Source: Verrucomicrobiota bacterium
GTDB lineage: Bacteria; Verrucomicrobiota; Verrucomicrobiia; Opitutales; Seribacteraceae
DNA length: 64,000 bases
Assembly (NCBI GenBank): GCA_027622665.1
Contig: JAQBYT010000001.1
Coordinates: 192,001 to 256,000, forward strand
Direction: 5' to 3'
This document shows positions 132 to 55,767 of the stretch, one piece after another (the first letter of the stretch is position 1; every line of letters starts with the position of its first letter). The translations under genes were made by a program, and so were the position numbers. Under the pieces are notes generated by a model. It did not search any database. It saw only the letters and a list, made by a program, of their open reading frames with translations, and was not told where the DNA came from.

Positions 132-1574
<1,443 letters not shown>

Positions 1575-1593
1575 CTCGGATTTTAGTGTTCAG

Positions 1594-4200
1594 TTAGTCT
1601 ACAAAAATAAATTCGTTCAGGCACAGCATTAGCTGGCAAAAATCGGCGACCGCCAAGTCGGCGGCGTTGCCAGTGCCGCCGTAGGATGCGGTCTGGCCAT
1701 TGATAAAGCCGACCATCTGCGCCTTCTCCGCAACGGTCGGCGGCCGCGACAGGGCCAGGGCGTAGGCCTGTTCGACCACCTGGTCGGGCGGCGTGTCGGC
1801 GGCGGGACGGATGCGCGTGACAAATTTTTCTGCCAGCTGGCGAGCGAGCGCCGAGTTCATCATCGCCAGCGCCTGTGGTGGGACGGTGGTGACGATGCGG
1901 TGGCCGATGCTCTGGATGGAGTCGGGCGCGTCGAACAGCTGCAACATAGGCACGAGGTTGCTGCGCTTCACGGTGAGGTAGATGCTACGCCGTGGGCTGG
2001 CCTGATCGAGCGAGCCCATGCCGAACATCGTCTTGTCGAGCGAGCCACTCACGGCGAGCAGGGTATCGCGGATGACCTCGGCCTCGAGACGCACCGTGCC
2101 GTGGCGCCACCACAGTCCGTTTTCCGGATCCGCCTTCACCGCCGCCGCGTTGGTCTCGCCCGACTGACGGTAGACAGCGCTCATCAGGATCTGTTTGTGG
2201 ATCGGCTTGAGCTTCCAGCCGCCGCGGACCAGCTCGACGGCGAGGAAGTCGAGCAGTTCCGGATGCGTCGGGCGGGTGCCCTGGCTACCGAGATCGCTCG
2301 GCGTCGCGACGATGCCGCGGCTCATGTGATGTTGCCACAGGCGGTTGACGATCACGCGTGCGAGCAGCGGGCCGGCACCTTGTTGTAGGTCGGTCAGCCA
2401 GCTCGCCAGTGCGACACGCGGCGGGACTGGCACTGGGTCGCCACCTTCAGCCGCCGTGTTCAACCACTGCTGCGCTGTCGTGCCCGACGTCTCCAGCACG
2501 CTCAAAAAGCCCGGCGTGGCGAGCTCCTGCTTAGCATACGAGTTGCCGCGCTCCAAGAAATACACCTTGCGGGTATCGGCACCAAAATTGTAAGTCGCGC
2601 CGCCTTTGCGCGCGGCGAATACCTTGGTGATAGCCGGCGTCGGCTGGGTCTTGAGGTGTTCTTGTTCGGCCAGGTTCAACTTGCTCCAGTCGGCGTCGCG
2701 CGGTGCATACCACTTCGCCAATTCCGCCTTCTGCTGGTCATTGCGCTTGTCGGCGGCCAGGTCGAAGATGTCTTGGATATTCTTGGGGATTCCGGGCTTG
2801 GTACTAAAGTAGAAACCCGAGGGACCCGAAGAGTTGACGATCTTGACCAGCAGATGGTTGGCACCGGCGAGCAGCTGCAGCGTGACCTTGTCCTGATCAG
2901 GCGACGCCCCCCCAGAGGTCTCCAGCGCATACACCTGCTTGCCGTTGAGGAACACCTTGATCGCGTCGTCGCGCCCGAGCGAGATCTCCAACGGCCTCGA
3001 CTCCCCCACCTCGATGGTGCGGTAGAGGTAGTTGGCGCTGTTGTCTCCCGTCAGCGTGTTGTGCACCTGGCCATCTTTCCACTCCGGCCGGGGCGTCCAC
3101 TTCAAGGCGTCGTAGGCCTTGCCGAGATCGATCTCCTTCTCCGGCGCGAACGCCTCCTCGAACGCTTTCTTAAAATCCGCCGCACCGAACGGCCCGATGA
3201 CTTGCCAGTCCCCCAGCTTCTCCGGCGACGGCGGTGCCGATCGCGTCGCCAGCCACTGATCTAATCTGCCGGACAGCTGGTCTTTCTCAAACTGCACCCG
3301 CGCATCGACGAAGGATTTGTGTGCCGCATCGAATTTCTCCTTGGCCACCCGCGTTCCGGCCGTATCAGGATCGTGGTCAAAATCTTGAAATCCGGTCTCG
3401 GCGAAGCAGGCCACGAAACGGTAATAGTCATGCGTGGTGAGCGGGTCGTATTTGTGATCATGGCACCTCGCACAACCGACAGTTAATCCCAACATCGACG
3501 TGCCGATGGTGCCGACGACATCGTCGAGTTGTTCATAGCGGCTCCGCTCGCGTTCTTTCTGGGTCTGCTGCGAAGTGAATGGCCCGGCGGCGAGAAATCC
3601 GGTGGCGGCCTGCGCCATGTAGCTCTCGGGCGCAATCTGGTCGCCGGCGATCTGCAGCCGCACGAATTGGTCGTAAGGCATGCCCTCATTGAGTGCCTTG
3701 ATGACGAAATCGCGGTAGTGGAACGCCCCTGCCCGATCCTGGTCGAAGGCGTAGCCGTTGCTCTCCGCGAAGCGCGCCAGGTCGAGCCAGTGGCGTGCCC
3801 AGCGCTCGCCATAGTGCGAGCCGGCCAGTAGACGGTCGATCAGGTGCTCGTAGGCGTCCGGCGAAGGATCGGCCACAAAGGCCTCGACCTCGGCGGGTTC
3901 GGGGGGTAGCCCCCACAGATCGAAGTAGACGCGCCGCACGAGCGTCCGGCGGTTAGCTTCGTCGTTCGGCGCGAGCCCCTGCGCCTGCAGCGGCGCGAGG
4001 ATGAAACGATCGATATCGGTGCGCACCCAAGGCGTTGCTTTCACCTGCGGCGGCGCGACCGCCTTGAGCGGCTGGAAAGACCAGAATCCGCGCCCGGGCT
4101 CGATGTCGATGGAGGCTTTGGTTACGCCTTTGACAGGTGCGGGCACATGGGCGAGCAACAGCAAGACGAAAGAGAGGGTCGCGGGAAACATTCGATTCAT
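1594..4200 (-). CDS. DUF1549/DUF1553 (PSCyt2/PSD1) protein with an inserted beta-sandwich domain
   Basis: Signal peptide; WSFQPL, YGERWARHWLDLARFAES, CARCHDHKYDP heme-type motif, ARVIVNRLWQHH, PTHPELLD, RLEAEVIRD, TTVPPQAL, NEFIFVD. Confidence 0.9.
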   Translation of the reverse strand: MNRMFPATLSFVLLLLAHVPAPVKGVTKASIDIEPGRGFWSFQPLKAVAPPQVKATPWVRTDIDRFILAPLQAQGLAPNDEANRRTLVRRVYFDLWGLPPEPAEVEAFVADPSPDAYEHLIDRLLAGSHYGERWARHWLDLARFAESNGYAFDQDRAGAFHYRDFVIKALNEGMPYDQFVRLQIAGDQIAPESYMAQAATGFLAAGPFTSQQTQKERERSRYEQLDDVVGTIGTSMLGLTVGCARCHDHKYDPLTTHDYYRFVACFAETGFQDFDHDPDTAGTRVAKEKFDAAHKSFVDARVQFEKDQLSGRLDQWLATRSAPPSPEKLGDWQVIGPFGAADFKKAFEEAFAPEKEIDLGKAYDALKWTPRPEWKDGQVHNTLTGDNSANYLYRTIEVGESRPLEISLGRDDAIKVFLNGKQVYALETSGGASPDQDKVTLQLLAGANHLLVKIVNSSGPSGFYFSTKPGIPKNIQDIFDLAADKRNDQQKAELAKWYAPRDADWSKLNLAEQEHLKTQPTPAITKVFAARKGGATYNFGADTRKVYFLERGNSYAKQELATPGFLSVLETSGTTAQQWLNTAAEGGDPVPVPPRVALASWLTDLQQGAGPLLARVIVNRLWQHHMSRGIVATPSDLGSQGTRPTHPELLDFLAVELVRGGWKLKPIHKQILMSAVYRQSGETNAAAVKADPENGLWWRHGTVRLEAEVIRDTLLAVSGSLDKTMFGMGSLDQASPRRSIYLTVKRSNLVPMLQLFDAPDSIQSIGHRIVTTVPPQALAMMNSALARQLAEKFVTRIRPAADTPPDQVVEQAYALALSRPPTVAEKAQMVGFINGQTASYGGTGNAADLAVADFCQLMLCLNEFIFVD

Positions 4201-49160: not shown

Positions 49161-50267
49161 TCAGGTAATGTGAGCGCCTCGGGTTTCGACGTACATGGCA
49201 TAAATGGATTGGCTTGCGGTCATGAAAAGGCGATTACGCTTAGGGCCGCCAAAGCAAAGGTTGGAGCAAATTTCAGGTAGCAGGATTTGGCCAATGCGCT
49301 TGCCTTCGGTAGGCTCGAACACATGAACGCCATCATAACCTGCACCCACCCAACCTGCGCTTGACCATACGTTTCCGTCTACGTCGCAACGGATCCCGTC
49401 GGCCATGCCTGCATAGGTCTCTTCGCCAATCTTCAAATCCATGGAGGCAAATCTTCTTCCTTTCTTGAGTGTCTTTTCTTCCACGACGTCCCATGCCTTG
49501 ATCTGCTTGTCTGCCTCGGGGTAATGGGAGGCTCCGGTATCGGCTACATAGAGCGTCTTGTAGTCAGGTGAAAAGCAGAGACCGTTGGGTTTGAAGATTT
49601 CGTCAGTGACTTTGTTTATTTTCCCTGTCTTGGAGTCAATACGGTAGACCGCTTCTTTTTGGTGGGGTTGGACGCTTCCCGTGTCGGACTTGTTGCCCTC
49701 GTAGTTCATCAACGAACCGTAGCCGGGGTCGGTGAACCAGATGTCCCCGTTCGGATGGACGACTGCGTCGTTCGGGGCATTGAACTGCTTCCCATCGAAT
49801 TCGTCGGCAAGAACGGTTGCCTTGCCATTGTGCTCGTAGCGGACGACACGTCGATTCCCGTGTTCGCAGGAGATTTGCCTGCCCTGCCAATCAAAGGTGT
49901 TTCCGTTGCTGTTTCCGCTCGGGTGACGAAAGGTGCTGACATGACCGTCTTCATTGAGCCATCGAAGTTGCACGTCGTTAGGAATGTCGCTCCAGATGAG
50001 GTATTTACCCACCGCGTTCCATGCCGGACCCTCGGCCCACAACATGTCGGGATGGGTGTAGAGGCGCTGTATGGGAGTGTTCCCCAGTTTGTATTTGTTG
50101 AAACGCTCGTCGTGTACGATGATGTCGGGATCCGGGTATCGCGTAGGGATGTTTCCCGTCCAGTCTCTGGCCATACAAACTGCAGTTCCCAAGCTAGAAG
50201 CCGCAGCGGCGAGAAAAGACCTGCGTCCCCAAGCATGAGTTTTGTCGGAGGGTGAGTTTTCTTTCAT
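49161..50267 (-). CDS. SMP-30/gluconolactonase family protein, Tat-exported
   Basis: GRRSFLAAA; WAEGPAW, WSDIPN, SNGNT, FNAPND, FTDPGYG, PNGLCFSPD, DGIRCD. Confidence 0.92.
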   Translation of the reverse strand: MKENSPSDKTHAWGRRSFLAAAASSLGTAVCMARDWTGNIPTRYPDPDIIVHDERFNKYKLGNTPIQRLYTHPDMLWAEGPAWNAVGKYLIWSDIPNDVQLRWLNEDGHVSTFRHPSGNSNGNTFDWQGRQISCEHGNRRVVRYEHNGKATVLADEFDGKQFNAPNDAVVHPNGDIWFTDPGYGSLMNYEGNKSDTGSVQPHQKEAVYRIDSKTGKINKVTDEIFKPNGLCFSPDYKTLYVADTGASHYPEADKQIKAWDVVEEKTLKKGRRFASMDLKIGEETYAGMADGIRCDVDGNVWSSAGWVGAGYDGVHVFEPTEGKRIGQILLPEICSNLCFGGPKRNRLFMTASQSIYAMYVETRGAHIT

Positions 50268-50588: not shown

Positions 50589-50972
50589 ATTTTAAGGCAA
50601 AAATCAGTCAACGGTTGCGGTTTTGGCTTCAAGTCTAAAAGCCGCATAAGAAAGCGTGAAGAATTCCAAACCGTTAAACAGAAAGGCAAGCGTGTACGCA
50701 CGAATCATTTCTTGGCGCAACTTCTTATTGACGACGAAAGACCAACGGCTGAAAGAAGGATCGGAATAATTGTAACAAGACGGCTAGGAAACGCCGTCAA
50801 GCGCAACCGAGCTAAAAGAGTCTTTAGAGAGTTGTTCAGGAATCATAAAGAAATTTTGCCCGAGAGAAGCGATTTGGTAGTAATTCCGCACTCAACTTTT
50901 TTTTCGCAACCCTATTCGATGCTTGAGTCGGATTTTCTACAGACATGCAAACGCTTTAAAACCGACAGATGA
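50589..50972 (+). CDS. rnpA: Ribonuclease P protein component (start codon unresolved)
   Basis: RIRKREEFQTV..KGKR and IGIIVTRRLGNAVKRNRAKR (RNR motif); the conserved N-terminus lies upstream of the TTG at 50712 used by the ORF track; start placed provisionally at the in-frame ATT. Confidence 0.85.
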   Translation: MLRQKSVNGCGFGFKSKSRIRKREEFQTVKQKGKRVRTNHFLAQLLIDDERPTAERRIGIIVTRRLGNAVKRNRAKRVFRELFRNHKEILPERSDLVVIPHSTFFSQPYSMLESDFLQTCKRFKTDR

Positions 50973-53065
50973 AAAACTACCTCATTGGCTTCAGCCTAAT
51001 CCTATCCGCTGCTTACCTTTATATGGAGCAGGCAAAAGTACAGCAGGAAAACGCGGAAGAAAACCAGCGGCATGATACGAGCTCACGCCAAGATCAGAGC
51101 GATGGTAATTATACAGCACCCAACATAATTGATGTCGCGGACGGCGGAATGCGATCGGATGTCAACGCATCACCTCTTTCTGCGAAGATTCCTCAAGAGG
51201 TTAAAACATATGAGGGACTTGTCGGCGATAGCTCTTCTTTTGAATTCACTACTCTGGGCGGAGCCATCAGTGCGGTACATCTGGAAGAGGCAGAACGCCT
51301 CAAAAAAAGCTATGACATGATATTCTCTACGAATGATAATGGCAAAGGCATTGAAGGTAATGCATTTAGCATGTCGTTCGAAAACCATGACGGCGACCCT
51401 CTGGACAACCCATTACCAGGCTACGATTCGAGAGCTTACGAAATCGCCAGTGGAGACTTGAATTCCAAGGTGACTTTCCTAAATCGCACGGGCAACGTTG
51501 AGATTCGTCGCGAATATTTCCGGGAAGCAAACGAAACCTATGTGATTAGGCATAGAACAACCGTGATTAACAGAGGTGACTCGAGCCTAAAGCTCGATAG
51601 GATTAGGTTCGGCATAGGTTCGGCATTCCCTATACCCCGAAAATTTAATTTCATCGACCAAGCCGCGTCTTACATGCATGTCGGCTACTTCAATTCTGGA
51701 AACCCTCAAGAGGCGGGCTGGGGGTGTGCTAAATGCAGTGGTCGCATTGACGGGGAAACTGAAGAGTTTTTTCAGGTTAACGAAATGGATGACTACGACC
51801 GGCTTCACGAGGGGAAAAAATTATCAGAAGCCAAATGGGCTTCAGTGAACAATCAGTTTTTCGTTAGCATTCTTCGGCCTAAGGAAGAAAAGGATGCTGT
51901 TGTTCGAGGAATGCCAATTGAGCGTAGTACTGACGGCAACGCCAGCAATAGGGAACAAGGAGTAACGGGATCCATCTCAATTCCTTTCGGAGAGATTCCT
52001 CCCGGAGAAAGCAGAAGCGTCGAGTGCATCTACTATGCAGGGCCAAAAGATTATATGATACTCTCCTCACTGGGAATGGAACAGGACAAGGTTATGCAGT
52101 TTAACCCATTCGAGTGGGTTTCTGGGCCGATGAATTCGCTTCTAAACAAGTTGCACGATATTCTAGGCAACTTCGGCCTAGCGATTATCTTCCTGACCAT
52201 CCTCCTTAAATTGGTGCTGTGGCCCCTTACCGCAAAAGCCACACGATCCCAGAAAAGAATGCAGGCGTTGCAGGAACCAATGGCGAAACTCCGTGAAAAA
52301 CACAAAAAAGATTCACAGAAAATGAATCAGGAAATGATGAAGTTTTACAAGGAACAAGGGGTCAACCCATTTGCGGGTTGCTGGCCTATCCTAGTTCAGA
52401 TGCCTATTTTCTTGGGAATGTTTTATATGCTTCGTTCGGCTGCCGAACTGTACGGGCAAAGCTTTCTATGGGTAAGTGATCTTTCCGAGCAAGACAATGT
52501 CGCAGACATTGCGGGATTTTCGATAAATGCTCTGCCCTTTGTAATGTTGGCCACACAGTGGTTTCAGATGAAGCTTACACCAATGCAACTTGGTCCTGAT
52601 GCCAGTGATTCTCAGCGTATCAACGCGAAGATGATGCGAATGATGCCGTTCATGTTCCTCGTGTTTTTGTATTTCTTTTCTTCTGCACTGGTACTGTATT
52701 GGACAGTGCAGAATACAATGAGCATCATTCAGACACTCATTACGAAGAAGGGAAAATCTCCGAAAGAAATCGAAACCGAAAGAAGTATTTTAGCGAAAGA
52801 TGAAGCAAAGGACGGTCAGAAAAAACCTGATGCCGATTTCATCGAGGAAGAGGAAAGGCAACATCGCCAAGTTCTCGGTTTAAAGTTGCGCGGGAAGCTA
52901 AACAAAAAACAAATCGATGAAATTTATCGGAGGCTCATGGAAAAATATCATCCCGACAAAGTGCGTAACCTTGGGGCCAAGCGGCAGGATGAGGCCATGC
53001 AGAAAAAAGAACGGCTGGAGGCTGCCTACGAATTTCTCTTGAAGAAACTTGCCAACAAATCATAA
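50969..53065 (+). CDS. yidC: Membrane protein insertase YidC with C-terminal J-domain
   Basis: WASVNNQFF, YAGPK, GNFGLAIIFLT, GVNPFAGCWPILVQMP, FLWVSDLS, LVLYW; tail QVLGL...YRRLMEKYHPDK...AAYEFL. Confidence 0.93.
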   Translation: MKNYLIGFSLILSAAYLYMEQAKVQQENAEENQRHDTSSRQDQSDGNYTAPNIIDVADGGMRSDVNASPLSAKIPQEVKTYEGLVGDSSSFEFTTLGGAISAVHLEEAERLKKSYDMIFSTNDNGKGIEGNAFSMSFENHDGDPLDNPLPGYDSRAYEIASGDLNSKVTFLNRTGNVEIRREYFREANETYVIRHRTTVINRGDSSLKLDRIRFGIGSAFPIPRKFNFIDQAASYMHVGYFNSGNPQEAGWGCAKCSGRIDGETEEFFQVNEMDDYDRLHEGKKLSEAKWASVNNQFFVSILRPKEEKDAVVRGMPIERSTDGNASNREQGVTGSISIPFGEIPPGESRSVECIYYAGPKDYMILSSLGMEQDKVMQFNPFEWVSGPMNSLLNKLHDILGNFGLAIIFLTILLKLVLWPLTAKATRSQKRMQALQEPMAKLREKHKKDSQKMNQEMMKFYKEQGVNPFAGCWPILVQMPIFLGMFYMLRSAAELYGQSFLWVSDLSEQDNVADIAGFSINALPFVMLATQWFQMKLTPMQLGPDASDSQRINAKMMRMMPFMFLVFLYFFSSALVLYWTVQNTMSIIQTLITKKGKSPKEIETERSILAKDEAKDGQKKPDADFIEEEERQHRQVLGLKLRGKLNKKQIDEIYRRLMEKYHPDKVRNLGAKRQDEAMQKKERLEAAYEFLLKKLANKS

Positions 53066-53125
53066 GTATGAAGACCGCTTCATCGTAAAAACCACGAGAC
53101 TGAAATTAACTAAGGGAAAAAAGAA

Positions 53126-53884
53126 ATGTCCGGGCACAGCAAATGGGCTACAACCAAAAGGCACAAGGCTACTGTAGACGCCAAACGTGGTAAGATTTTC
53201 AGCGTTATCAGTAAAGAACTTATGCTAACTGCACGTGATGGCGGAGGGGACGCTGAATGCAACCCACGCCTGCGTACTTTAATTCTAAAGGCCAAGCAAG
53301 CCAACATGCCGGCAGAAAATGTGGAGCGAGCGATCAAGAAGGGTACGGGCGAACTTGAAGGCACAATAATCGAAGAACTGCTTTACGAAGGCTACGCTCC
53401 TGGAGGAGTTGGCTTAATAATAGAAGTTACGACAGACAATAAAAACAGGTCCGCATCTGAAGTCAGGAGTACGCTAGGGAAAGGGGGAGGGAACCTCGCG
53501 GGCACAGGTGCTCTCTCATACAACTTTAAGCGCAAAGGCCAATTCCTAATTGCCAAAGACAAAGTCGATGAAGATACGCTCACAGAACTAGCTCTTGAAA
53601 ACGATGCGAATGACGTTGTTGCCGAAGAGGAGCATTTCGAAGTTCTTTCCGAAGTGAGAGCATTCGATAAATTGACACAAGCACTGAATGCTGCACAAAT
53701 TGAGACCGATTCCGCAGAGCTCGTCTATCTCCCGGAAAACCTTATCGCCGTCTCGGACGAAAACGTAGCTCGTCAAGTATTGCGCCTAATTGACAACCTC
53801 GACGAGTTGGAAGACGTTAAGGCTGTTCACAGCAATTATGACATAGATGAAGCTTTGATTGAGACCCACGCAGCACAAGGATAA
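53126..53884 (+). CDS. yebC: YebC/PmpR family protein
   Basis: MSGHSKW, NPRLR, NMP, YEGYAPGGV, TDNKNR, LEDVKAVHSN. Confidence 0.95.
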   Translation: MSGHSKWATTKRHKATVDAKRGKIFSVISKELMLTARDGGGDAECNPRLRTLILKAKQANMPAENVERAIKKGTGELEGTIIEELLYEGYAPGGVGLIIEVTTDNKNRSASEVRSTLGKGGGNLAGTGALSYNFKRKGQFLIAKDKVDEDTLTELALENDANDVVAEEEHFEVLSEVRAFDKLTQALNAAQIETDSAELVYLPENLIAVSDENVARQVLRLIDNLDELEDVKAVHSNYDIDEALIETHAAQG

Positions 53885-53952
53885 AGAACTCATTGTCTTG
53901 TGCTGAGATAAAGTTAAGCACAGGCAGGAAAAACAAAGGAGTTTCCCATAAA

Positions 53953-55767
53953 GTGATCGGAAGCAAAACAGATCCCGATTACCTAAACGGAGTTGACGAG
54001 GTTGGTCTTGTAAAACCAAAGGAATTTCGTGACGACTCACCCTTTCAATTTGAGAGAGGAGGGGAAATCGCATCCATCAATTTACGTTATGAAACATATG
54101 GAGAGCTTGCTCCGAACAAGGAAAATGCGATCCTTATATGCCATGCCCTAACGGGCGACCATCATTGTGCCGGGATTCATTCGCCAGGGGACACGAAACC
54201 AGGTTGGTGGAACCAAATGATAGGTCCCGGCAAGGCCATCGATACAAAACGATTCTTTGTAATTTGCTCTAATTGCCTTGGTGCATGCCAAGGTTCCACT
54301 GGTCCAACTTCGCTCAATGAAGCTACGGGGAAACCTTACGGCATCTCATTTCCAGAGTTAACCATAGGCGATATGGTTTTCGCCCAAAAGCGTTTAGTGA
54401 AACATCTCGGCATCGACAAGCTCTATGCCGTCGTAGGAGGCAGTATGGGCGGGATGCAGGCGTTGCAGTGGGCAGTGTCCTGCCCAAAGTTAGTAGCACG
54501 AACCGTAGTGATCGCCGCAACCACACGGCACAACGCCCAAACCATCGCCTTTAACGACGTTGGCCGAGCCGCCATCCAGGGCGATCCGGAATGGAACGGT
54601 GGAGACTATCCGTCCGACGGGGGTCCAGAGGTCGGACTCGCGATCGCCAGAATGATGGCTCACATCACTTACCTTTCGGGCAAAGGCATGGAGCAAAAGT
54701 TCGGTAGATCTCGCCGCGAGCAAATAGACGGTAACGCAACGAAGTCAGTAGAGGCACACTTTGGGGTTGAGTTCGAGGTTGAAAGCTACCTACGCCATCA
54801 GGGGAAGACCTTCGTAAACCGCTTTGACGCGAATACCTACCTGCATCTCACCAAGGCTCTCGATCGATTCGATCTTCATGCGGAGGAGGGAGGACTCGGA
54901 CAATCCCTCAGTCGAATAAATGCCCGAACTCTTGCTGTAGGTTTTACATCCGACTGGCTATACTCTCCCCAGCAAAATCGTAAAATTGTGGAAACTCTCC
55001 AATGCTTGGGTAAGGATGCTTCCTATGCTGAAATCGATCATGATTTCGGTCACGATTCCTTCTTGCTCAAATCCGAACGATTCCATCGTCTTGTACAAGT
55101 TTTTCTGGAGGGAGCAGACCAAAGAGAACTTGATCGACAAAGTTCTAGGCCCGATTCGATCACTCGTACCGAAGCAAAAAAAGAAGCTGATTTTCGAGTA
55201 ATAGATGAATGGGTTGGGCAAGGCGAAAGCGTTCTTGACCTAGGGTGCGGTTGCGGAATTCTCCTGGAACACTTGGCCAAGACCAAACAAGTACGAGGTT
55301 TAGGCGTGGACATTGATATTGAGAAAGTCATTGGCTGTGTCTCACGTGCTGCTCCGGTCTATCAAGGTGATGTTCGCAAAACTCTTGCAGGCTTTCCCGA
55401 TGATTCTTTCGACTGGATCGTATTCTCCCGCACCATGGAAGAATTAAACAACCCATGTGAAGTCATTGAAAAAGCTCTACAGGTCGCCAAGCGAGTGGTG
55501 GTAAGTTTTGTTAATCACGGTTATTGGCGTAATCGCCTCCACTATTTCTTAAACGGTAGTCGGATCATAAACGACGTATACGACAAAGCTTGGCACGAAC
55601 GGGTCCCCGTCAACCCTGTATCAATCCGTGATTTCGAAAATTTCTGTCGTGACCGCAACCTAGTCCTCCGAAGGAGAGTGTGCCTAGGCGGAGACTGGAA
55701 AACCCATCGTAGAGTACTCCCAAACCTACTTGCCGGAGTGGCAATATATGAGGTAGGAAGAACTTAG
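53953..55767 (+). CDS. metX: Homoserine O-acyltransferase MetX fused to a MetW-like methyltransferase domain
   Basis: YETYG, CHALTGD, GWW, GGSMGG, FDANTY, SDWLY, GHDSFL; then VLDLGCG.G, FPDDSFD, VSFVNHGYW; start uncertain (53893-53953). Confidence 0.9.
   Translation: MIGSKTDPDYLNGVDEVGLVKPKEFRDDSPFQFERGGEIASINLRYETYGELAPNKENAILICHALTGDHHCAGIHSPGDTKPGWWNQMIGPGKAIDTKRFFVICSNCLGACQGSTGPTSLNEATGKPYGISFPELTIGDMVFAQKRLVKHLGIDKLYAVVGGSMGGMQALQWAVSCPKLVARTVVIAATTRHNAQTIAFNDVGRAAIQGDPEWNGGDYPSDGGPEVGLAIARMMAHITYLSGKGMEQKFGRSRREQIDGNATKSVEAHFGVEFEVESYLRHQGKTFVNRFDANTYLHLTKALDRFDLHAEEGGLGQSLSRINARTLAVGFTSDWLYSPQQNRKIVETLQCLGKDASYAEIDHDFGHDSFLLKSERFHRLVQVFLEGADQRELDRQSSRPDSITRTEAKKEADFRVIDEWVGQGESVLDLGCGCGILLEHLAKTKQVRGLGVDIDIEKVIGCVSRAAPVYQGDVRKTLAGFPDDSFDWIVFSRTMEELNNPCEVIEKALQVAKRVVVSFVNHGYWRNRLHYFLNGSRIINDVYDKAWHERVPVNPVSIRDFENFCRDRNLVLRRRVCLGGDWKTHRRVLPNLLAGVAIYEVGRT

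Follow-up and report, generated by a model that had tools for sequence, protein, structure and literature searches.

A YidC insertase with a C-terminal J-domain in a marine family of Opitutales

The C-terminus of YidC is cytoplasmic and is found beside the exit of a docked ribosome, as known for E. coli YidC, Oxa1, and Alb3; its contact to the ribosome is made jointly with the loops C1 and C2. For the YidC tails of R. baltica and O. alexandrii, Seitl 2014 is said to be the source. Little has been worked out on how cytosolic chaperones are coupled to membrane insertion in bacteria: some tail-anchored proteins that depend on YidC receive help from DnaK in E. coli, and we know of no physical link between the two. 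Here, we describe a YidC whose own reading frame runs on into a J-domain, termed YidC-J in the following. Its gene lies in a stretch of 64,000 nucleotides from a Verrucomicrobiota bacterium of the order Opitutales (assembly GCA_027622665.1, contig JAQBYT010000001.1, positions 192,001 to 256,000 of the forward strand), and this whole stretch is called the window; all coordinates of YidC-J and its neighbors refer to it.

The closest described systems fall into several groups, each of which shares certain features with YidC-J and lacks others. The tails of Oxa1, S. mutans YidC2, Alb3, and the YidCs of R. baltica and O. alexandrii are cytoplasmic or matrix-facing, positively charged extensions that recruit a partner in biogenesis, and the C-terminal ends of Oxa1, YidC, and Alb3, which bear positive charge, bind ribosomes (PMC8733628). 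The tail of YidC-J would be an extension of the same kind. However, these known tails are described as polybasic segments or motifs of low structure that bind ribosomes or cpSRP43, whereas the tail described here is a folded J-domain with a His-Pro-Asp (HPD) motif behind an acidic linker.

DjlA and other membrane-anchored class-C J-proteins likewise place a C-terminal J-domain on the cytoplasmic side of the inner membrane, carry HPDK followed by a longer loop, and have DnaK as presumed partner. In DjlA, the membrane part is a single transmembrane (TM) helix joined to a TerB-like domain, whereas here it is a complete housekeeping YidC. YidC-J hence does not have the DjlA layout of a single N-terminal TM helix, a TerB-like region, and a C-terminal J-domain, and the genome encodes a separate DjlA-like protein of 253 residues. 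HscB (Hsc20) provides the best sequence and structure matches of the tail in the Protein Data Bank (PDB) and has an equally long spacing between HPD and helix III; unlike YidC-J, it has a C-terminal helical domain for IscU binding and works with HscA.

In eukaryotes, Sec63 and ERdj1 (at Sec61), Pam18/Pam16 (at TIM23), and Zuotin/RAC (the ribosome-associated complex, at the ribosome exit) position a J-domain where a polypeptide emerges, in order to activate Hsp70. On the trans side, Sec63 and Pam18 pull chains through, whereas the J-domain of YidC-J would be on the cis side and is a covalent part of the insertase; in its position, RAC is the closer relative. None of these translocon J-proteins shows a sequence relationship to the YidC tail beyond the J fold itself. 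Pam16, finally, is a precedent for a J-like partner without HPD (PMC3237618). A J-like domain of the Pam16/Tim16 type does not fit YidC-J, which has its HPD, and does fit the orthologs of two other genera described below.

Reading frame and fold of YidC-J

Including its stop codon, yidC-J occupies 50969 to 53065 on the forward strand and encodes 698 residues in one uninterrupted open reading frame (ORF), as given by the ORF list, the translation, and a Pfam scan. The scan places YidC_periplas, 60KD_IMP, and DnaJ on this single chain; insertase core and J-domain thus share one frame, just as a preliminary description made from the sequence had claimed.

The N-terminal part (residues 1–401; 50969 to 52171, forward strand) comprises a hydrophobic run as putative anchor at about residues 3 to 19 and the periplasmic P1 region, for which YidC_periplas matches residues 266 to 388 with 41.3 bits at model positions 164 to 280 of 283; the N-terminal part of P1 is, by this comparison, divergent. 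The YidC/Oxa1 insertase core (residues 402–594; 52172 to 52750, forward strand) matches 60KD_IMP with 197 bits over the full model, 1 to 163 of 163. A PDB sequence search aligns residues 343 to 599 with residues 295 to 538 of the 548 of E. coli YidC in 4utq (E 8e-41). Counted from this alignment, K414 is opposite the groove Arg366 of 4utq_A, with Lys in place of Arg. With a complete 60KD_IMP model and the groove lysine, the core looks functional. YidC-J hence combines a five-TM 60KD_IMP core, an N-terminal anchor with a large P1 region, the positive charge in the groove, and the gene order rpmH–rnpA–yidC. By homology to E. coli YidC, we infer the same topology, including the cytoplasmic C-terminus. 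E. coli YidC ends some 10 residues past the aligned block, whereas YidC-J runs on for 99 more.

These extra residues start with an acidic, disordered linker (residues 595–626; 52751 to 52846, forward strand), which has a net charge of −5 over a script-defined cut of 34 residues and an identity to its relatives of 10 to 34%—against 71 to 88% in the core. The J-domain follows (residues 627–698; 52847 to 53062, forward strand) and was delineated from Pfam, structure prediction, profile search, Foldseek, and charge. Pfam DnaJ (PF00226) matches residues 638 to 692 with 27.9 bits in the whole protein, the curated cut-off being 27.8, and scores 32.3 bits on the last 98 residues alone. A profile built from 23 orthologous YidC tails—alignment A1—has J-domains of HscB as its sole matches in the PDB (4it5, E 5.6e-5; 1fpo, E 1.2e-4).

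The AlphaFold2 model of the tail from A1, in which model residue n corresponds to residue 598+n of YidC-J, has a mean predicted local distance difference test (pLDDT) score of 78.7. Its first 23 residues are disordered, with pLDDT below 50, and residues 29 to 99 are mostly at about 90. The modeled helices are helix I (627–635), helix II (646–658), a short turn (662–665), and a long helix III (670–697). Searched against the PDB with Foldseek, the top 45 or so rows are all J-domains, at a root-mean-square deviation (rmsd) of 1.5 to 2.5 Å over 56 to 60 columns, and include 5nro_B, the J-domain of a DnaK–DnaJ complex; the E-values are weak (0.1–1.2) because a J-domain is small. The J fold proposed earlier is thus recovered by structure prediction, by fold comparison, and by the match to HscB. 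The four-helix pattern proposed along with it is not, as one long helix III takes the place of helix III and a separate helix IV. Precomputed YidC clusters in the ESM Atlas are annotated with PF02096 and PF14849 only and bear no DnaJ label, which says nothing on the tail.

The HPD motif—His661, Pro662, and Asp663, encoded by cat ccc gac at 52949 to 52957 of the forward strand—is intact and sits between helices II and III, as first described. From helix II to HPD, the tail reads YRRLMEKYHPDK and the DnaJ of the same genome YRKLAVKYHPDK, with identical spacing. Between HPD and helix III, the loop exceeds that of this DnaJ by about five residues. A similarly long loop is found in the DjlA-like protein of the genome, in a membrane-anchored J-protein of the same genome, and in HscB, and the DjlA-like segment noted past HPD at the outset is hence well described as a loop of DjlA/HscB type. 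The 68-residue J part has a net charge of +10 and a pI of 10.2.

In the genome, an assembly of 4.52 Mb in 66 contigs that is 93.5% complete, no 60KD_IMP match other than YidC-J was found. This sole match and the position directly downstream of rpmH and rnpA identify it as the housekeeping YidC and uphold the earlier assignment.

The junction between core and tail is no product of misassembly. Thirty-six loci, each from a different assembly of the family and our own among them, show a continuous frame. Contigs of four public runs (X2, X13, X15, and X16) were aligned to positions 52300 to 53300 of the window. The X13 contig, 4617 nt from a DNA library, spans the whole segment with 2 substitutions; the X2 contig is identical throughout, and this DNA may stem from that run. 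Two contigs come from RNA libraries and are taken as presence of the DNA sequence, not as proof of transcription: X16 (1531 nt) covers 52565 to 53300 with 10 substitutions and a 1-nt deletion at 53117, past the stop codon, and X15 covers 52697 to 53090 with substitutions only. No stop or indel between YidC core and tail is thus found in contigs of independent DNA and RNA runs, and the region around 52700 to 52900, where a mis-join had been considered, is crossed by X13, X15, and X16 with substitutions only. Among 199 candidate metagenome proteins, 33 match the tail at E ≤ 0.001, and 31 of these span the whole tail query at 67 to 100% identity. Their source names say just "YidC/Oxa1 family membrane protein insertase," and 8 of the 33 carry a precomputed PF00226 annotation.

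Distribution of the fusion and fate of the HPD motif

The search for further fusions used the tail itself against 61 relatives and the profile A1 against 401 genomes of the order, representing 41 families. In both, matches that end frames of YidC size (687–762 residues) occur only in the window's own family, with 30 rows and three contig-limited fragments listed for the search of the order. Within this marine family (f1; g1 denotes the window's own genus and g2 to g5 the other genera), the fusion is present in 37 of 42 genomes: in 36, the ORF of core and tail was read, and in G032 it is a frame of 704 residues. As for the remaining five, G011 has a tail fragment at a contig end and G002, G009, G033, and G034 have no tail; none of them has any 60KD_IMP match, at a completeness of 51 to 89%. 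Therefore, each genome of the family with an assembled YidC has the tail, and the fusion is a family trait. The carriers are all metagenome-assembled genomes (MAGs) named "Opitutae," "Opitutales," or "Puniceicoccaceae" bacterium, and the DNA turns up in runs of marine, seawater, or estuary metagenomes.

Outside this family, the fusion was not found in the 40 other families of the order, where the matches of A1 lie in frames of 131 to 365 residues. A phylum-wide sample of 401 genomes gave matches in 9, the window's own included, and none of YidC size. A HMMER pass of A1 over 1.84 billion representative proteins returned 911 matches at E ≤ 0.001. Among the best 150 of these, three exceed 600 residues (693, 695, and 681); they belong to the 16 best matches, all of which are YidC tails or fragments thereof, and the remainder are proteins of 42 to 365 residues matched mostly at the C-terminus. 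Hence, no YidC-J fusion beyond the clade of this family was found among the best 150 of the 911 matches from these 1.84 billion proteins. A locus search with the single tail gave 26 loci: five are of YidC size (frames of 698–701 residues, 95–96% identical, from MAGs named Opitutales, Opitutia, or Puniceicoccaceae), and the other 21, classed by frame rather than by Pfam scan, are J-type matches in frames of 235 to 498 residues from Flavobacteriaceae, Desulfobulbaceae, and others. Twenty of these 21 carry HPD, and the weakest, L137, is a short match. All of these searches detect tails of this sequence type and are blind to a YidC that, in another phylum, was independently fused with a J-domain of some other kind.

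Five YidCs from four other families (L077 to L081) have 619 to 670 residues and end in Lys/Arg-rich tails of 21 to 54 residues with a net charge of +3 to +6 and no J-domain. Such a short polybasic tail is the presumed ancestral state, which linker and J-domain would have replaced.

Two long frames with J-type matches turned out not to be YidCs. In G058, from another family, the 693-residue open frame holds an N-terminal HPT J-like protein and a Pro-rich region in GC-rich DNA; in G433, from another family of the phylum, the frame of 509 residues combines Sel1-type repeats—by reading, unscanned—with a C-terminal J-domain. At L073 of G433 (1492 to 2946, reverse strand), a protein of 484 residues with these Sel1-type repeats ends in the same HPDKV..LG type of C-terminal J-domain; within the phylum, this J-domain type looks like a mobile C-terminal module.

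Within the family, the HPD motif divides the tails. It is present in 10 of the 37 tails read, namely in eight g1 genomes including our own, in G013 of g2, and in the G011 fragment of g4, and is absent from the other 27, which comprise all tails of g3 and g5 that were read. The preliminary description had staked its reading on relatives that do not encode the J-domain as a separate gene and that conserve HPD: the relatives indeed never encode it separately, whereas the conservation of HPD breaks down in this larger part of the family.

An alignment of 35 full tails (9 HPD and 26 HPD-less rows) details the loss. All nine HPD rows keep H, P, and D without exception, and the g4 fragment has HPD as well. 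In the 26 HPD-less rows, the H position holds S (16), T (7), or E (3), the P position P (8), S (7), E (6), or D (5), and the D position eight different residues. The flanks stay fixed in the same rows: N659 in 25 of 26, and Y660, K/R664, L665, and M668 in all 26. The AlphaFold2 model of an HPD-less g3 tail (pLDDT 77.6) has the same four helices, and its best Foldseek matches are HscB and other J-domains at an rmsd of 1.4 to 1.9 Å. At E ≤ 0.01, Pfam DnaJ recognizes 13 of the 23 tails of A1—eight of eight with HPD and five of 15 without.

Identities and charges tell how the parts evolve. Within the HPD-less group, the cores share a median identity of 88%, the J-like domains one of 50%, and the linkers one of 16%. 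Compared with the divergent species G001, G007, and G013 of the HPD clade, YidC-J shows 71 to 84% in the core, 60 to 61% in the J-domain, and 26 to 53% in the linker. Judged from these values, constraint acts on the domain, be it J or J-like, in both groups. The linker is acidic throughout the family (26–39 residues, net −2 to −9), and the domain is strongly basic, its net charge ranging from +10 to +14 with HPD and from +4 to +11 without, at a pI of 9.5 to 10.7.

The history of the motif was approached by a tree of the YidC core, a quick IQ-TREE run of 40 rows with SH-like approximate likelihood ratio test (SH-aLRT) support, from which one fragment of 313 residues was left out. Five outgroup sequences fall on one side (100) and f1 forms one group (100); inside f1, G013 (g2, HPD) branches first (94), followed by a split between g1 (HPD, 91) and all 26 HPD-less rows (99). 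A more careful tree of 25 rows gives the same split between g1 and g3 with g5 (97/92 and 95/94). The HPD-bearing lineages are hence paraphyletic in the rooted core tree, which favors an HPD-bearing ancestor and one loss—in a gene tree in which G013 is a long branch with masked residues and g4 is not placed. Independently of the tree, the nearest relatives of the YidC tail are HPD-bearing J-domains, and where g3 genomes have lost HPD from their YidC tail, the paralogous membrane J-protein still has it (copies L024, L028, and L029). Taken together, this suggests that HPD is ancestral in the family and was lost once; the de novo origin of an exact HPD at the correct site is much less likely. If so, the HPD-less clade would be a dated case in which one event made a J-domain J-like while selection continued to act on it.

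A further observation concerns residue 656 (52934 to 52936), where YidC-J has Leu after Arg655 (YRRL, as compared with YRKL in its own DnaJ). Arg is found at this position in eight of nine tails of the HPD clade and in 25 of 26 HPD-less tails. The RNA-library contigs X15 and X16 have T>A at 52935, which by codon reading would give His at 656.

Possible roles of the tail

The genome offers a simple set of partners. Its PF00012 matches comprise one DnaK-type Hsp70 (826 bits; contig C59) and two weak ones of 39 and 19 bits in frames of 348 and 519 residues; an HscA-like Hsp70 was not found in this PF00012 search of the genome. J-domain matches number four: DnaJ (385 residues), the DjlA-like protein, a membrane J-protein of 195 residues, and the YidC tail. 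The DjlA-like protein on contig C15 has the DjlA layout, with the TerB label resting on a reading of its sequence. The membrane J-protein bears a C-terminal HPD J-domain and is encoded on contig C47 (L063, 750 to 1337, forward strand) directly upstream of htpG, which starts at 1391; the same pairing with htpG is found in g2 and g3 genomes (L024, L027, L028, and L029). It is the closest in-genome relative of the YidC tail, with 39.7 bits and 32% identity over 71 residues, followed by the DjlA-like protein (26.6 bits) and DnaJ (21.7 bits).

In this genus, we consider it rather probable that the tail recruits DnaK locally at the insertase. An acidic linker and a strongly basic class-C J-domain would have replaced the ancestral short polybasic cytoplasmic tail of the sole housekeeping YidC. 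As the YidC C-terminus is cytoplasmic and beside the exit of a docked ribosome, the flexible leash of about 30 residues would hold the J-domain just beneath the insertase, at its cytoplasmic mouth. There, the intact HPD and the DnaJ-like helix II would most likely stimulate ATP hydrolysis by DnaK, the sole Hsp70—a stimulation that requires HPD in Hsp70 systems (PMC10410713). DnaK would then clamp cytoplasmic segments of YidC clients at the membrane. Such clients could be post-translationally delivered tail-anchored or small proteins that are handed over from a chaperone, or the emerging cytoplasmic loops of nascent membrane proteins, which DnaK would hold. The data show architecture, fold, and motif, one copy each of yidC and dnaK, the charge, and the phyletic pattern; stimulation of DnaK, clients, and ribosome contact are, like the cytoplasmic placement taken from homology, what we infer. 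Precedent for DnaK working with YidC exists: insertion of the tail-anchored TssL of E. coli depends on YidC and is modulated by DnaK (PMC3426401), and DjlC and Flk require SRP (the signal recognition particle), FtsY, YidC, and DnaK (PMC6794478).

Several points weigh against DnaK recruitment as the purpose of this tail. The Pfam match of the tail to DnaJ is real yet marginal, the tail model is without a separate helix IV, and a net charge of +10 would also fit a role in nothing but nucleic-acid or ribosome binding. Most members of the family—all g3 and g5 tails read—have no HPD, and this clade nonetheless retains the fold, the length (63–68 residues), and the basic charge of the domain. Therefore, the role that is conserved family-wide is not HPD-dependent activation of DnaK. 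In addition, all carriers are uncultured MAGs. A predicted complex of the organism's own DnaK (residues 1–605, alignment of 30 rows) with ATP and the tail (residues 26–100 of A1) scored 0.00 in both runs, a value that, with no controls folded, weighs neither way on binding.

Since most of the family retains the domain in an HPD-less form, an HPD-independent role must, on this evidence, exist as well, and such a second job would account for its retention in the sister clade. The likeliest candidate is ribosome docking, since the J-domain took the place of a polybasic tail and has stayed highly positive in charge; by analogy to the known tails, this is the most economical guess.

The HPD-independent role might also be the sole important one. 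The tail would then be a structural basic helical module that docks the ribosome—or SRP/FtsY, or RNA—and HPD in YidC-J an ancestral leftover with little or no function toward DnaK. We regard this as unlikely, if well worth weighing. It accommodates the 27 of 37 tails that do without HPD and keep fold, size, and charge, the short polybasic tails at the same place in the YidCs of other families, the ribosome binding of the basic C-termini of Oxa1, YidC, and Alb3 (PMC8733628), and the charge and pI of the J part. However, no change in H, P, or D is seen among the nine full tails and the one fragment of the HPD clade, whose J-domains are only about 60% identical, and the same three positions vary freely in the sister clade, which is the pattern expected from purifying selection on HPD. 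Helix II, moreover, retains the DnaJ-like YRRL spacing.

A pairing in the manner of Pam16 and Pam18, in which the tail binds the J-domain of the 195-residue membrane J-protein and thereby tethers this protein and DnaK to YidC, appears improbable. The tail's closest in-genome relative is this very protein, a second J-type match (frames of about 200–316 residues) is found in most genomes of the family, and the copies L024, L028, and L029 retain HPD where the YidC tail has lost it; J-like Pam16 holds Pam18 at the translocon (PMC3237618), and 2guz (Tim14–Tim16) appears low in both Foldseek lists, at rank 44 for this tail and at rank 36 for the g3 tail. Yet, the resemblance to Pam16/18 is no closer than to any other J-domain, and the tail of this organism carries its own HPD and would not need the J-domain of a partner. 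That the fusion is artificial, be it through mis-joining, through an overlooked stop or frameshift, or through a likeness to J-domains that arose by chance, could be read into the marginal Pfam score and the metagenome-type assembly in 66 contigs, and is nearly inconceivable given the identical frame in 36 loci, the contigs of independent DNA and RNA runs that cross the junction without indel or stop, and the identification of the J-domain independently by fold and by profile search.

A bolder form of local DnaK recruitment by YidC-J is possible and held only tentatively. The insertase would be its own Hsp70 co-chaperone: a J-domain at the ribosome exit and the insertase mouth would load DnaK onto emerging or post-translational clients, as a built-in bacterial counterpart of RAC, ERdj1, or Sec63. 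The HPD-less sister clade would then be a natural separation-of-function mutant in which docking was kept and the activation of Hsp70 was lost or passed to the membrane J-protein.

If YidC carries its own J-domain in this functional sense, it would provide a direct and genetically simple handle on the coupling of chaperones and insertion, and Hsp70 would join the ribosome and cpSRP43 among the partners recruited by YidC/Oxa1 tails. This is of real interest to the fields of membrane biogenesis and chaperones, within the bounds of one uncultured marine family, most members of which have lost HPD, and of a function that is predicted. Full-text searches of the literature gave no account of a YidC–J-domain fusion, in line with the initial impression of novelty; Barriot et al. 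2020 (J Mol Biol), reportedly a survey of bacterial J-protein architectures, may list it. YidC, 60KD, insertase, and Oxa1 are unmentioned in the text and one supplement of a survey of about 280,000 J-proteins (PMC10410713), which excluded unclassified organisms and thus possibly MAGs. PF00226 and PF02096 already stand together in the precomputed Pfam annotations of some YidC-J proteins, so the architecture is visible in databases though unnamed.

Neighboring genes

Upstream of yidC-J on the same strand, rpmH for ribosomal protein L34 (50425 to 50580; Pfam Ribosomal_L34, 66.6 bits) is followed by rnpA for the RNase P protein (50712 to 50972; Pfam Ribonuclease_P, 66.6 bits, and ORF list), whose stop overlaps the ATG of yidC. 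As listed, the rnpA ORF has only 86 residues from a TTG, and Pfam matches it from model position 38 of 109 onward, which leaves the true start in doubt; it is probably upstream or noncanonical. Downstream, a gene of the yebC/TACO1 type follows (53126 to 53884; Pfam).

Two further frames lie nearby. On the strand opposite to rpmH and adjoining it upstream, an ORF of 368 residues (49161 to 50267, reverse strand) has an N-terminal twin-arginine-like signal (RRSFLAAAASS). At 53893 to 55767 of the forward strand, a single ORF of 624 residues combines Abhydrolase_1 of the homoserine O-acetyltransferase type (residues 78–393) with MetW (residues 432–620, 149 bits) and looks like a MetX–MetW fusion.

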